The notes beneath the pieces are model-generated. The model was not told where the DNA came from. It searched no databases and worked only from the letters and a program-made list of their open reading frames with translations. From Escherichia phage PBECO4: 64,000 nucleotides of DNA. Within the stretch, counting starts at the first letter, position 1, and the number at the start of each line of letters is the position of its first letter. Below are positions 15,827 through 20,114 of the stretch, one piece after another. The stretch is from the sequence record KC295538; one strand, written 5' to 3'. A program made the position numbers and the translations under genes.

Positions 15827-15916
<90 letters not shown>

Positions 15917-15928
15917 AGAAGTAAGATA

Positions 15929-16029
<101 letters not shown>

Positions 16030-16165
16030 GCCAAGAGTCGGCATAGGTGCAGCACTACAAAGTTCTTCAAGCTGCTTGGCAGTTTCTTCACTTACTTTCA
16101 TATTGACCTCGTTAGATTAAAACCCCCAGTTTTCTTCTTGAACCATAATACACCCCATTCAATGA

Positions 16166-16204
<39 letters not shown>

Positions 16205-16261
16205 GTATTCTACAGCGACCATTTTAGCTAAAGGTGAACTGAGCATACTCGAAGTACCTCT

Positions 16262-16929
<668 letters not shown>

Positions 16930-16944
16930 TTATACCTCGCATTG

Positions 16945-17104
<160 letters not shown>

Positions 17105-17107
17105 GTA

Positions 17108-17233
<126 letters not shown>

Positions 17234-17242
17234 GTAGTATTT

Positions 17243-17602
17243 TCAGAAAAAAACCTTATTCAACACTTTAATTATCACAGAATTTAATTCATGTGGGAAC
17301 ACATTTTCATATACTGTGCGTTTCTGAAATTCATCTTCTTCATCAGCACTTAGCTGGAAGGTAATGTATTGAGCATTTATACTATTTATTATATCACGTA
17401 AAGTGTTATTTGTCCTTTTTATTTCTTCAAATGATTCAAAAACAATTACATCGTCATTTATAATAAATGATTCACCATATTCATTGAAAATGCGAATTCC
17501 AGGATTATCTTTACACCAGTTATTGGTATGGTCTGTTGTTAATTTTGAATTCAAAAATGATTTAAGAAACTCTTCATACTTTGAAATGTCTTTAACACTC
17601 AT
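17243..17602 (-). CDS. EExxFxQxST-motif family paralog
   Basis: C-terminal SADEEDEFQKRTVYENVF. Confidence 0.5.
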   Translation of the reverse strand: MSVKDISKYEEFLKSFLNSKLTTDHTNNWCKDNPGIRIFNEYGESFIINDDVIVFESFEEIKRTNNTLRDIINSINAQYITFQLSADEEDEFQKRTVYENVFPHELNSVIIKVLNKVFF

Positions 17603-17964
17603 ATCACCAACTTTAATTAAAAAAATGGATGGTGACGCTTTTAAACGCCGCTGTTAATTCAGCTTTATAACCACCCGTTTTAACTTACCTTTCGGCTACC
17701 TTGACGTGGGGCGTACAGGCTACTAAAAGCAACTTCTGTAAACATATTTCCACGCCTTACCCTTTTAAATAAAAGTCCATCCGGTTTTCCAGTTTGGTGA
17801 AGGACTTTCACCTCTAGTTTCAACCTGCTAGTCAAGTAATAATTGCCTATCGTCCAATTATCAAACCCGTCTAGGTTAACATTCACCACTTCCTAGAGTA
17901 CCAGAGATCTTGTTCTGGTTAGCATCGACGTAACTTACACCATATACGTCTGATTGTGGAATTC
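17603..17964 (-). ncRNA. candidate structured RNA or long 5' leader (alternative: 69-aa GTG-initiated ORF 17680..17889)
   Basis: GC-richer than flanks, directly downstream of consensus promoter 17965-17993; hairpin ggtgaa-agtcc-ttcacc; only ORF needs a GTG start with an RBS-like AGGAA abutting it. Confidence 0.3.
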
Positions 17965-18002
<38 letters not shown>

Positions 18003-18035: not shown

Positions 18036-18059
18036 TATCCTCAGTACTGAATTATTTAG

Positions 18060-18063: not shown

Positions 18064-18473
<410 letters not shown>

Positions 18474-18920: not shown

Positions 18921-19036
<116 letters not shown>

Positions 19037-20032: not shown

Positions 20033-20114
<82 letters not shown>

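Follow-up and report, generated by a model that had tools for sequence, protein, structure and literature searches.

Phage tRNA clusters are now viewed as counter-defence and translation-tuning modules. To our knowledge, no function has been assigned in about fifty years to the non-tRNA RNAs encoded in such clusters, of which RNA C and RNA D of phage T4 are the classic example. The two T4 RNAs are stable, have lengths of 139 and 119 nt, and come from genes at the end of the tRNA cluster that share the strand of the tRNAs; the 3' end of RNA C consists of a tRNA-like T-arm and acceptor. A biological role of RNA C and RNA D is still unassigned (PMC3014915). The GOLLD and ROOL RNAs are encoded by phages and prophages, often near tRNA islands. 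They contain multiple pseudoknots, have no known protein partner, and their function is likewise unassigned (PMC12286853).

Here we analyze positions 17603-17964 of a 64,000-nt stretch of DNA from the 121Q-like jumbo phage PBECO4 of Escherichia (KC295538; "the window" below is this whole stretch). The original prediction described the segment as one candidate structured RNA of about 360 nt. The comparative data support a structured, non-coding segment 3' of a promoter, but not a single RNA. Instead, the minus strand of 17603-17964 is predicted to contain two independent non-coding RNA genes, modules A and B.

Setting and composition of the locus

The prediction had started from a GC-richer segment behind a consensus promoter in a tRNA cluster, and all three observations were borne out. 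The GC content of 17603-17964 was 0.403, compared to a mean of 0.331 (sd 0.031) in the window, corresponding to the 98.7th percentile among 362-nt windows. The flanking genes were at 0.302 and 0.278 (40% versus 28-30%). The promoter (Table 1) was confirmed, and its spacer contains TTCAGTACTG. The window has 17 copies of this motif, compared to 0.2 expected, indicating that the promoter belongs to the phage's own promoter family. The same promoter was also found directly 5' of module A in EJP2 and 121Q, and directly 5' of module B in JNE01. ARAGORN identified minus-strand tRNA genes on both sides of the segment, namely at 15837-15910, 16949-17198 (three genes), 18921-19010 and 20040-20112. The folding energy by itself was modestly unusual (z = -2.6 for the whole segment, -2.4 for module A, -3.05 for module B); the comparative evidence is the strong part.

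Two separable modules

When the segment was used as a blastn query, matches split at about nt 190-200, showing that modules A and B are separable. Module A was found without module B in PM2, Pm5461, Mm5, SdyM006, Proteus phage 1 and EJP2, and module B without module A in JNE01. In Kuravirus, the module B hairpin was present alone. G17 has neither module, and a 37-nt scar of module A remains. All four states (A and B, A only, B only, neither) occur within a single genus. In Klebsiella RaK2/K64-1 phages, positions 139-492 of a 901-nt query were matched, which is exactly A plus B, and the flanking genes were unmatched. Comparison of A with B gave chance words only.

In the PBECO4 DNA, both modules are predicted to be co-transcribed from the promoter at 17993-17965, with transcription ended by the branched terminator at 17676-17619. 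The AU-rich linker between them is a putative, likely endonuclease site. In K64-1, RaK2 and L030, the linker contains an insertion of ~40 nt that carries its own promoter (TTGAAC-17-TATAAT).

Table 1. Predicted features of the locus, in the direction of transcription.
Feature	Position	Strand	Description	Basis
Promoter	17965..17993	minus	sigma-70 type, TTGACT-17-TAAAAT, TG upstream	promoter scan, 10/12 matches
Module A	17775..17963	minus	189-nt predicted structured RNA, seven hairpins (P0-P6) and three pseudoknots	covariance model R1
PK1 5' strand	17956..17959	minus	CCAC, extreme 5' end of A	pairs with GUGG in P2 loop (17886-17889)
P0 hairpin	17924..17954	minus	AUC-GACGUA ... UACGUC-GAU, conserved GGYG-containing loop	
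P1 hairpin	17901..17918	minus	CCAGA ... UCUGG	both-side changes in 4/5 pairs
P2 hairpin	17870..17897	minus	UCUAGG ... CCUAGA, loop provides PK1 3' strand	
P3 hairpin	17839..17861	minus	AUAAUUG ... CAAUUAU	both-side changes in 7/7 pairs
H-type pseudoknot	17814..17837	minus	interleaved stems P4' and P4	both stems with both-side changes
P5 hairpin	17796..17812	minus	GGUGA-AAGUCCU-UCACC, 5-bp stem, 7-nt loop	100% paired
P6 hairpin	17781..17792	minus	CUGG-AAAA-CCGG	weak support, both-side change in 1/4 pairs
PK2 3' strand	17775..17778	minus	GGAC, extreme 3' end of A	pairs with GUCC in P5 loop (17805-17802)
Linker	17761..17774	minus	UUUUAUUUAAAAGG, AU-rich, 14 nt	
Module B	17619..17760	minus	~142-nt predicted RNA, H1, H2 and H3	MFE fold, z = -3.05
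H1	17756-17703	minus	long interrupted hairpin	
H2	17696-17687	minus	GCC-GAAA-GGU	
H3	17676-17670 / 17633-17627	minus	three-way-junction intrinsic terminator, GGGUGGU / ACCAUCC	
69-aa ORF	17680..17889	minus	GTG start, runs from the 3' half of A into the 5' half of B	not a gene

Module B as a small RNA or a leader

In module B, the H3 stem is followed by seven U residues (17625-17619). Because the stem is branched, H3 is not listed by a simple terminator scanner. Among seven sequences, module B was 99.1% paired, with changes on both sides in only 2 of 35 pairs; the covarying pairs include the terminator arms. Two more pairs changed on both sides were found by eye in the Kuravirus H1. The module B structure is plausible and not proven, with thin covariation support, because the comparison comprises only two clades and the partial Kuravirus match.

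The intrinsic terminator of module B lies ~17 nt ahead of the start codon at 17602. This position would suit a cis-acting leader or attenuator (riboswitch-like) for gene 17243..17602, formed by the whole region or by B alone, as would the presence of the same gene after B in JNE01 and of a small ORF 4 nt past the B match in RaK2. Several observations nevertheless make a leader rather unlikely. G17 has the same downstream gene without A or B, the genes 3' of B differ between 121Q-like and RaK2-like phages and could not be aligned by blastn, and the Kuravirus B hairpin does not adjoin a gene start. Module A mostly precedes tRNAs, of differing identities, rather than genes. Inspection, although not exhaustive, revealed no alternative anti-terminator pairing. 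We favor a separate small RNA instead. Module B is located directly 3' of its own promoter in JNE01, K64-1, RaK2 and L030, shows the G+C-rich stem and U run of an intrinsic terminator, and occurs independently of its neighbours, as expected for an independent sRNA gene.

Fold and covariation of module A

The covariance model R1 scored 230 bits at module A and identified 15 homologues with E < 1e-20 (62-235 bits). The length of module A varied between 180 and 202 nt among members. In the 15 homologues, 97.0% of 768 pair cells were standard pairs, compared to 78.6% in shuffled and 24-41% in slid controls. Changes on both sides were found in 35 of the 53 pairs, as opposed to 5-12 in slid controls, although these counts are inflated by shared ancestry. 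In a structure-blind MAFFT alignment, 12 pairs had changed on both sides (0-3 in controls). In the comparison of covariation with codon conservation, the related genomes show compensatory base-pair changes in module A and no conservation of the codon type. U-G pairs were conserved in 14 of 15 sequences at columns 159/169 and in 13 of 15 at columns 203/212. On the opposite strand, these would be A-C mismatches, indicating that the RNA strand of module A is the minus strand.

According to the predicted fold, module A contains an internal H-type pseudoknot, its first nucleotides are tied to the P2 loop, and its last nucleotides to the P5 loop. The PK1 strands CCAC/GUGG are replaced by CCUCA/UGAGG in KP13-16, by CUACA/UGUAG in L009, and by AGCAC/GUGCU in Aeromonas 65. 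For PK2, the combinations GUCC/GGAC, ACCC/GGGU, GCCC/GGGC, AUCC/GGAU, UUCC/GGAA and UCCC/GGGA were found. We also considered a helix that would close module A by pairing its 5' end with its 3' end, and rejected it, as it was unsupported across clades and both ends pair with internal loops.

The hairpins between these ends also varied in a compensatory manner. In P0 (A5 alignment columns 10-20/34-44), 8 of 9 pairs had changed on both sides and 93.6% were paired, and in P2 the values were 6 of 6 and 98.9%. P1 variants included CCG/CGG, CCCACA/UGUGGG and CCAAUA/UGUUGG. In the H-type pseudoknot, stem P4' is formed by ACUUG (17837-17833) and CAGGU (17827-17823), with variants AGUUG/CAGCU, CACUG/CAGUG and CCUUG/CAGGG, and stem P4 by CUAG (17831-17828) and CUAG (17817-17814), with variants CUGG/CCAG, CAAG/CUUG and CAGG/CUUG. 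The ggtgaa-agtcc-ttcacc hairpin that had been singled out originally is real and corresponds to P5; its compensatory variants in other phages are GGUAA/UUACC, GGUUA/UAACC and GGUCU/AGACC. The P6 pairing breaks down in the Aeromonas-phage members.

Many unpaired nucleotides were invariant, namely GACGAUA, CGGG, UUGAC, CAG....AAA, GAGGU, CAAAC and AUGG. GACGAUA is located in the P3 loop and was identical in 15 of 15 sequences. In UGAAA, the third loop of the H-type pseudoknot, the 3' AAA is invariant. The idea of a CsrA sponge (GGA in loops) was discarded, because the GGA motifs of the P2 and P3 loops are missing from the Aeromonas-phage and L009 members.

Distribution of module A

Module A was 82-90% identical in T4-like and T5-like phages of Proteus, Morganella and Shigella, and recognisable in Klebsiella RaK2-like and phi92-like phages, in relatives of Aeromonas phage 65, and in metagenome contigs. 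By sequence comparison, it belongs to a family of predicted phage RNAs of ~180-200 nt that had not been catalogued before and that is found inside tRNA gene clusters in at least five phage groups unrelated to one another. The family is small and comprises some 10 separate lineages, whose carriers all infect Enterobacterales or Aeromonas. A blastn search that started from the divergent L009 copy did not reveal further phage groups. Pattern scans of IMG/VR, metagenomes and species genomes added only L009, L019, L029, L030, L033 and L035, and the remaining matches were dismissed as chance hits within coding DNA. Among 185,579 species genomes, the sole hit was an Armatimonadota MAG contig (L036), in which the covariance model had no match at E <= 1. 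There was no match for module A in E. coli genomes, indicating that it is not a copy of a host RNA.

In most carrier phages, module A is flanked by tRNA genes on one or both sides and has the same orientation as these. The order is Gly-A-Asp in PM2 and SdyM006, Leu-A-Ser in Proteus phage 1 and KP13-16, and A-Thr in Aeromonas 65 and L009. In L033 and L035, a tRNA precedes A with a 2-nt gap, and in EJP2 a tRNA-Ser follows 16 nt downstream. The presence/absence pattern indicates that module A comes and goes as a cassette. No neighbouring genes are common to the carrier phages, and therefore no partner protein is co-inherited with module A. We also note several further ORF-less structured cassettes nearby, indicating that the RNA-gene content of these tRNA islands is under-annotated.

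The multi-pseudoknot fold and the many invariant unpaired nucleotides could suggest that module A is a self-processing ribozyme that excises itself from tRNA-array transcripts, for example by cleavage at its 5' boundary, immediately 3' of the CCA of the preceding tRNA. The PK1 5' strand begins just past this CCA, which recalls ribozymes that pair their first nucleotides. The distance varies from 2 to 5 nt, however, and no known ribozyme family was matched. In three lineages, a promoter and not a tRNA is located upstream of A, so that cleavage would be unneeded there, and the ends of A are sufficiently explained by host tRNA-processing enzymes. We therefore consider a ribozyme quite improbable.

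Conservation of a DNA-level element (a homing-endonuclease target, recombination hotspot or protein-binding array) might be suspected from the sporadic, cassette-like occurrence of such similar copies in unrelated phages, and from the segD-like homing endonuclease gene just upstream of A in SdyM006. Homing could account for the spread of A, but not for its identity. The compensatory changes maintain Watson-Crick and G-U pairing in only one of the two strands, and A is always co-oriented with the tRNAs, 3' of a promoter or tRNA. An explanation at the DNA level is thus very unlikely.

Searches for known RNA classes

Neither module matched any Rfam 15 family: there was no hit at E <= 10 over 17603-17964, and eight homologous loci gave none at E <= 5. 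The Rfam models without a match over A, B or these loci include those of known self-cleaving ribozymes, riboswitches, tmRNA, Y-RNA (YrlA) and GOLLD/ROOL. ARAGORN found neither tRNA nor tmRNA in 17603-17964. The proposed analogy to the stable RNAs of T4-type phages was correct with respect to location in a tRNA cluster and orientation, but did not extend to homology with RNA C or RNA D. The model R1 had no hit at E <= 1 in the T4 tRNA region (L008), and blastn (word sizes 6-7) of rnaC and rnaD against A, B and the window gave chance words only.

The sequence GAGGUGAAAGUCC in the window looks like the CR-I motif of RNase P. The resemblance was discarded, since GAGGUGACAACCC or GAGGUCUCAAUCC is present at this place in other members and the likeness is thus not conserved. 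A diverged version of a known class (pseudo-tRNA, tmRNA, Y-RNA/YrlA, 6S, RNase P RNA, a GOLLD/ROOL fragment, or T4 RNA C/D) would share with module A the tRNA-island location, as in T4 RNA C/D, GOLLD and ROOL (PMC12286853). In view of the negative searches, we see very little chance that this is the case. In the literature on 121Q, RaK2 and tRNA-cluster RNAs, no such RNA was found; subscription journals lay largely outside this search.

Coding potential

The sole ORF in the segment is, as described originally, a 69-aa frame (17680..17889) with a GTG start preceded by AGGAA, and a "hypothetical protein" is annotated under the match in the GenBank records of 121Q, SD-2_S15, WPEC3 and others. Codon-type conservation of the frame, which would have been expected for a gene, was not seen: in-frame stops or frameshifts were present in 12 of 14 homologues, and substitutions were spread evenly over the three codon positions (103/83/103). 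A 69-aa protein is refuted by these comparative data and hardly credible, all the more as the ORF bridges modules that are found apart elsewhere (in K64-1 it is split by the 40-nt promoter insert), as its GTG (17889) is part of the covarying PK1 3' strand in the P2 loop, as a PHROG search with the ORF gave no significant match, and as an inner ATG frame of module B ends after 3-6 codons in K64-1, RaK2 and JNE01.

Discussion

We consider it probable that the locus contains two ncRNA genes, module A for a stable, putatively trans-acting RNA released by tRNA processing, and module B for a separate small RNA. The ends of module A could be generated by two routes. In 121Q-like and RaK2-like phages and in L029, the RNA would start from a promoter ~7 nt upstream. 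Elsewhere, the gene layout suggests that the nucleases maturing the neighbouring tRNAs would cut it free. The upstream tRNA lies 0-3 nt away, and its 3' processing would release the 5' end of A; on the other side, the downstream tRNA lies 10-16 nt away and would be cut by RNase P. From gene layout and fold, RNase E would be a further candidate for processing. Judging from the fold, both termini would be buried in pseudoknots, which should make the RNA exonuclease-resistant and long-lived. The invariant unpaired nucleotides may constitute a tertiary core or a putative binding surface, through which module A, as a trans-acting RNA, might affect the translation apparatus or a protein of the host or the phage. 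The most plausible role would be that of a putative decoy in the conflict of phage and host over tRNAs. Module B would be a separate small RNA with a Rho-independent terminator, transcribed from its own promoter in other phages.

More speculatively, module A may be the founder of a new class, a compact, exonuclease-proof, triple-pseudoknot tRNA-array RNA that binds and neutralises or redirects a putative host factor acting on tRNA or the ribosome, with P5/PK2 as a mimic of an anticodon loop plus codon. Candidate targets would be tRNA-directed defence proteins (anticodon nucleases among others), enzymes that process or modify tRNAs, or the ribosomal decoding site. This possibility is tentative, and we regard it as unlikely. 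If it were true, the phage tRNA island would be an arsenal of replacement tRNAs and RNA decoys.

Irrespective of function, module A provides a well-defined, covariation-supported family that is exchanged among T4-like, T5-like, phi92-like and jumbo phages. It is a tractable test case, with isogenic-like natural pairs (121Q versus G17, EJP2 and JNE01), with E. coli, Klebsiella and Proteus as hosts, and with a fold that is precise enough for break-and-restore mutants. The "hypothetical protein" annotations in many jumbo-phage records are also corrected.

In T4-like Bragavirus phages, module A occupies the same kind of position as RNA C and RNA D in T4. In contrast to these, it is longer and has three pseudoknots, and neither Rfam nor ARAGORN detects a tRNA-like element in it. 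Type III antitoxin RNAs (ToxI) are also pseudoknotted and bind proteins, but are tandem repeats of ~34-45 nt that are processed by the toxin, whereas module A is a single 190-nt unit with no internal repeats and no linked toxin gene. Phage "pseudo-ToxI" mimics can reportedly neutralise an abortive-infection nuclease, providing a precedent for RNA-based anti-defence.

Pseudoknot I of the dicistrovirus intergenic IRES RNAs mimics an anticodon stem-loop with its codon. P5/PK2 resembles it by geometry only, with a 5-bp stem and a 7-nt loop, of which nucleotides 3-6 pair with a downstream single strand as an anticodon loop does with a codon. The likeness includes the whole RNA, with ~190 nt and three pseudoknots. 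Unlike an anticodon loop, the P5 loop has no U33/purine-37 signature, and H-type pseudoknots of this size are common.

The ncRNA arrays of UG27 reverse transcriptases differ from module A in that they belong to Bacteroidota prophages, are linked to the RT and consist of arrayed units (bioRxiv 10.64898/2026.09.22.753630). In PA5oct, a relative in the 121Q/RaK2 clade, ORF-less transcripts accounted for 2-5% of phage reads by RNA-seq (PMC7318152), suggesting that abundant ncRNAs are normal in this jumbo group. The PA5oct ncRNAs were reported to lack similarity to other sequences, and the comparison with A and B concerns the phage group. GOLLD and ROOL share with module A the phage origin, the tRNA-island setting and the multiple pseudoknots. 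They measure from ~580 to >800 nt, form multimeric cages, and are mostly found in Bacillota, Actinomycetota and marine phages, whereas module A is an RNA of ~190 nt from lytic phages of Enterobacterales and Aeromonas.

Locus and promoter

Escherichia phage PBECO4 is a 121Q-like jumbo coliphage (Asteriusvirus), and a 901-nt blastn query around the stretch under study shared 91-98% identity with 121Q, SP27, the SD-*_S* Salmonella phages and others. The stretch lies on the minus strand, within a tRNA island whose genes occupy the same strand. The GC enrichment and the promoter of the original prediction were both recovered: the GC fraction is 0.403, compared with a window mean of 0.331 (sd 0.031; 98.7th percentile) and with 0.302 and 0.278 in the flanking genes. 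The promoter spacer contains TTCAGTACTG, which is built around the palindromic core CAGTACTG and has 17 copies in the window, where 0.2 are expected; the promoter thus belongs to a recurrent type of the phage's own. The motif, also present in promoters of the comparison loci L029 and L030, is a phage-specific promoter element or operator.

Features of the stretch under study and its surroundings (positions in the 64,000-nt window from record KC295538)
Feature	Position or pairing	Strand	Description
Stretch under study	17603-17964	(-)	362-nt query
Promoter	17993-17965	(-)	TTGACT-17-TAAAAT, TG upstream
Module A	17775-17963	(-)	189 nt
Module B	17619-17760	(-)	~142 nt, from GUAAGG at 17760 to U run 17625-17619
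H1 (module B)	17756-17703	(-)	long interrupted hairpin, MFE fold
H2 (module B)	17696-17687	(-)	GNRA-capped hairpin, MFE fold
H3 (module B)	GGGUGGU/ACCAUCC	(-)	three-way junction closed by this helix, then seven U, MFE fold
PK1 (module A)	CCAC of 5' leader/GUGG of P2 loop		variants CCUCA/UGAGG, CUACA/UGUAG, AGCAC/GUGCU
P4' (module A)	ACUUG/CAGGU		variants AGUUG/CAGCU, CACUG/CAGUG, CCUUG/CAGGG
PK2 (module A)	GUCC of P5 loop/3'-terminal GGAC		variants ACCC/GGGU, GCCC/GGGC, AUCC/GGAU, UUCC/GGAA, UCCC/GGGA
tRNA genes	15837-15910, 16949-17021, 17026-17104, 17109-17198, 18921-19010, 20040-20112	(-)	ARAGORN
TTCAGTACTG sites	e.g. 17972-17981, 18042-18051, 18451-18460, 17212-17221		17 in window, in promoter spacers

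A hairpin quoted in the original prediction was found at 17812-17796. Folding of the stretch alone gave a mild excess over shuffles only (minus strand z = -2.6, plus strand z = -1.9), and the thermodynamics of a single sequence are insufficient to decide for a structured RNA.

Elsewhere in the window, 15911-16447 (-) has a GC fraction of 0.38 and no convincing ORF, carries two palindromic TTCAGTACTG sites and a promoter-like site (16173-16145), and is kept in 121Q-like phages only (89-98%); it is possibly another non-coding transcript. The segment 18838-18916 (-), which adjoins tRNA-Ser (18921-19010), scored 29.3 bits with the Rfam tRNA model (threshold 29) without an ARAGORN call and may be a degenerate or unusual tRNA.

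Two separable modules

A blastn search of the 362-nt query against 50,697 phage records split it in two, with nucleotides 1-189 (module A) and about 198-362 (module B) matching separately. Module A was found in T4-like Bragavirus phages of Morganella, Proteus and Shigella hosts (Mm5 90.0%, PM2 90.4%, Pm5461 89.9%, SdyM_006 82.3% identity), in T5-like Novosibvirus Proteus phages (84%) and, more weakly, in the phi92-like Klebsiella phage KP13-16 and relatives of Aeromonas phage 65. A part of module B (query 204-257) was also found in Kuravirus podophages. In the Klebsiella jumbo phages RaK2 and K64-1, query 3-356 matched at 80% while the flanking genes were unalignable; here, an insert of about 40 nt carrying a promoter (TTGAAC-17-TATAAT) separates A and B.

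Within Asteriusvirus, PBECO4 and 121Q carry both modules, EJP2 carries only A (with tRNA-Ser 16 nt downstream), JNE01 only B (immediately behind the promoter), and G17 neither, retaining a 37-nt remnant of A behind the promoter. These four states show that A and B are separate, dispensable cassettes. The original prediction of a single structured RNA of about 360 nt stands with respect to structure, but the blastn split and the phages with A or B only show two units instead of one.

Structure and covariation of module A

Nine sequences aligned with MAFFT, together with a structure drawn by hand, yielded a covariance model that recovered 15 module A homologues (62-235 bits); beyond these, the search at E <= 1 returned only short fragments of about 8-10 bits at other loci. 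In the model-based alignment, hairpins P0-P6 were 96.4% paired, with both-side changes in 30 of 42 pairs, compared with 5-9 in controls with 3' partners slid by 1-3 columns. Scanning the alignment for additional complementary columns identified three pseudoknots (PK1, P4'/P4 and PK2). P4' is interleaved with P4 (CUAG/CUAG), and the resulting H-type pseudoknot has an invariant AAA at the end of its third loop. With hairpins and pseudoknots combined, 97.0% of 768 cells were paired and the base pairs were kept by compensatory changes (both-side changes in 35 of 53 pairs, 5-12 in slid controls); none of 500 shuffles matched the real alignment on any of five measures. Because a model-fitted alignment is biased towards its own structure, the count was redone on the nine closest sequences, aligned with MAFFT without structural information; here 99.6% of cells were paired and 12 pairs changed on both sides, compared with 0-3 when slid. 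Support for P6 is weak. Conserved U-G pairs show which strand is transcribed.

Unpaired and invariant are GACGAUA in the P3 loop, CGG after P2, UGAC before P4, CAG....AAA in the P4 loop, GAGGU, and AUGG at the 3' end. The longer forms CGGG and UUGAC occur in 14 and 13 of the 15 homologues, and a CAAAC stretch 3' of P5 is kept in only 9. So many invariant unpaired nucleotides indicate a tertiary core or binding surface rather than a simple antisense RNA. We consider it very likely that module A is a structured non-coding RNA.

Coding potential

As originally predicted, the sole ORF in the stretch is a 69-aa frame with GTG start (17680..17889). Codon-type conservation was absent: the frame is interrupted by stops or shifted in 12 of 14 homologues, and substitutions at codon positions 1, 2 and 3 number 103, 83 and 103. 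The ORF moreover spans two modules that exist separately elsewhere, and has no significant match in PHROG. In K64-1, RaK2 and JNE01, the inner ATG frame of module B is only 3-6 codons long before its stop. The hypothetical protein that several GenBank records annotate over this stretch is therefore most likely spurious.

Structure of module B

The minimum free energy fold of module B (z = -3.05) ends in H3, a predicted branched intrinsic terminator. Among seven sequences, 99.1% of cells were paired, with only two pairs changed on both sides (GCUG/CAGC to UCUG/CAGA; GGCG/CGUC to GACU/AGUC). The Kuravirus copy of H1 shows, by eye, two further both-side changes and one mismatch. Conservation is striking, with a run of about 40 nucleotides unchanged between 121Q-like and RaK2-like phages, and B has its own promoter wherever A is missing or apart from it. 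We regard module B as a genuine small RNA gene with a plausible modelled structure.

Module A in tRNA arrays

Module A always lies on the tRNA strand. It fills the gap between tRNA-Gly and tRNA-Asp in PM2 and SdyM_006, sits between tRNA-Leu and tRNA-Ser in Proteus phage 1 and KP13-16, and precedes tRNA-Thr in Aeromonas phage 65 and IMG/VR contig L009. In the metagenome contigs L033 and L035, a 2-nt gap separates it from a preceding tRNA. L033 (-) carries two diverged copies (2105-2284 and 2422-2608; 207 and 159 bits) on either side of tRNA-Arg, both retaining the fold via compensatory changes. The 5' end of A lies either 0-3 nt past the CCA encoded in the upstream tRNA gene or, behind a promoter, about 7 nt past the -10 box (121Q-like and RaK2-like phages, L029). 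That the same end is reached in two ways favours a discrete RNA with that end.

In Shigella phage vB_SdyM_006, a segD-like homing endonuclease gene (835-1440 of locus L004) lies directly upstream of the tRNA-Gly/A/tRNA-Asp block. Such cassettes may plausibly spread between phages through gene conversion driven by the endonuclease.

Further candidate RNAs at related loci

In K64-1, a stretch of about 165 nt without ORF (2334-2498 of locus L002), between tRNA-Gly and module A, ends in a B-type three-way-junction terminator (GGAUGAU ... UCUGAAUUGACAGA ... AACAGCUAAAACUGUU ... AUUAUCC and a U run) and is possibly a third RNA cassette. Two ORF-less, strongly self-complementary stretches adjoin module A of the metagenome contig L029 (-), one (~1075-1130) between tRNA-Leu and a promoter, the other (~610-775) between two promoters; in one of the two, UCAACGGUGAGUAACAUUG and CAAUGUUACUCACCAUUGA pair as a closing helix of 18-19 bp. 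Several RNA genes in these jumbo-phage tRNA islands seem to have escaped annotation.

Kuravirus vB-EcoP-XT32 contains a 650-nt GC-rich mosaic without ORF or Rfam match (1154-1802 of locus L007) that carries the B hairpin. Its segment 1564-1639 matches N4-like phages at 88-95% identity and bears the annotation tRNA-OTHER or tRNA-Undet in some of them; it includes the words GACGAUA and CAGAUGGA, which resemble those of module A. The 3' end resembles a tRNA T-arm and acceptor (GUAGGUCCGAACCCUAC ... ACCUGUAACCA). In the N4-like Klebsiella phage KP8, ~806-1120 of locus L037 is tmRNA-like: a possible tag frame, GCAAACGAUGAUGUUGUUCUGAUGGCUGCUUAA (ANDDVVLMAA*), precedes a tRNA-like 3' end (GGUUCGAAUCC ... 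ACCA); Rfam matches were sub-threshold only (tmRNA_permuted 33 bits, cut-off 47) and ARAGORN made no call.

Proposed role

The gene layout, fold, cassette behaviour and lack of coding capacity of the modules are demonstrated and invite a model. In PBECO4, A and B would be co-transcribed from the promoter to the B terminator and probably split in the AU-rich linker. Copies of A embedded among tRNAs would be released by the enzymes maturing the neighbouring tRNAs. With both ends held in pseudoknots, A may be protected from exonucleases and persist as a long-lived compact particle, its invariant loops and junctions offering a surface to a partner. Carriers of A have no neighbouring protein genes in common, so a co-encoded protein is a less likely partner than a factor of the host or one that all these phages conserve. 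From the association of A with phage tRNAs and its accessory nature within a genus, our tentative and still doubtful proposal is a trans-acting binding or decoy role in a conflict between phage and host over tRNAs or translation.

Comparison with known RNAs

Searches with Rfam 15 found nothing on either module, whether in the window (E <= 10), across eight homologue loci (E <= 5) or in the Kuravirus region, consistent with an uncatalogued RNA, and ARAGORN made no call over either module. Nothing resembling A was found in E. coli genomes. Scanning one genome per species turned up a single match, on an Armatimonadota MAG contig (L036), and a model search including this contig gave none at E <= 1; the metagenome scan added phage-like contigs only. 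No description of A was found in the mainly open-access literature that our search covered. The observation and interpretation of the original prediction hold, the feature being a new RNA family, A, and a second small RNA, B. Stable non-tRNA RNAs have long been known in this setting and never explained. The feature should be of moderate to high interest to RNA and phage biologists.

T4 RNA C and RNA D, whose roles are still unknown (PMC3014915), occupy the same genomic niche as A, the phage tRNA cluster, but show no similarity to A or B. GOLLD and ROOL are associated with phage tRNA islands, contain multiple pseudoknots and have no known function (PMC12286853). Although three to four times larger than A and unrelated to it, they share with it the tRNA-island setting and the presence of several pseudoknots.
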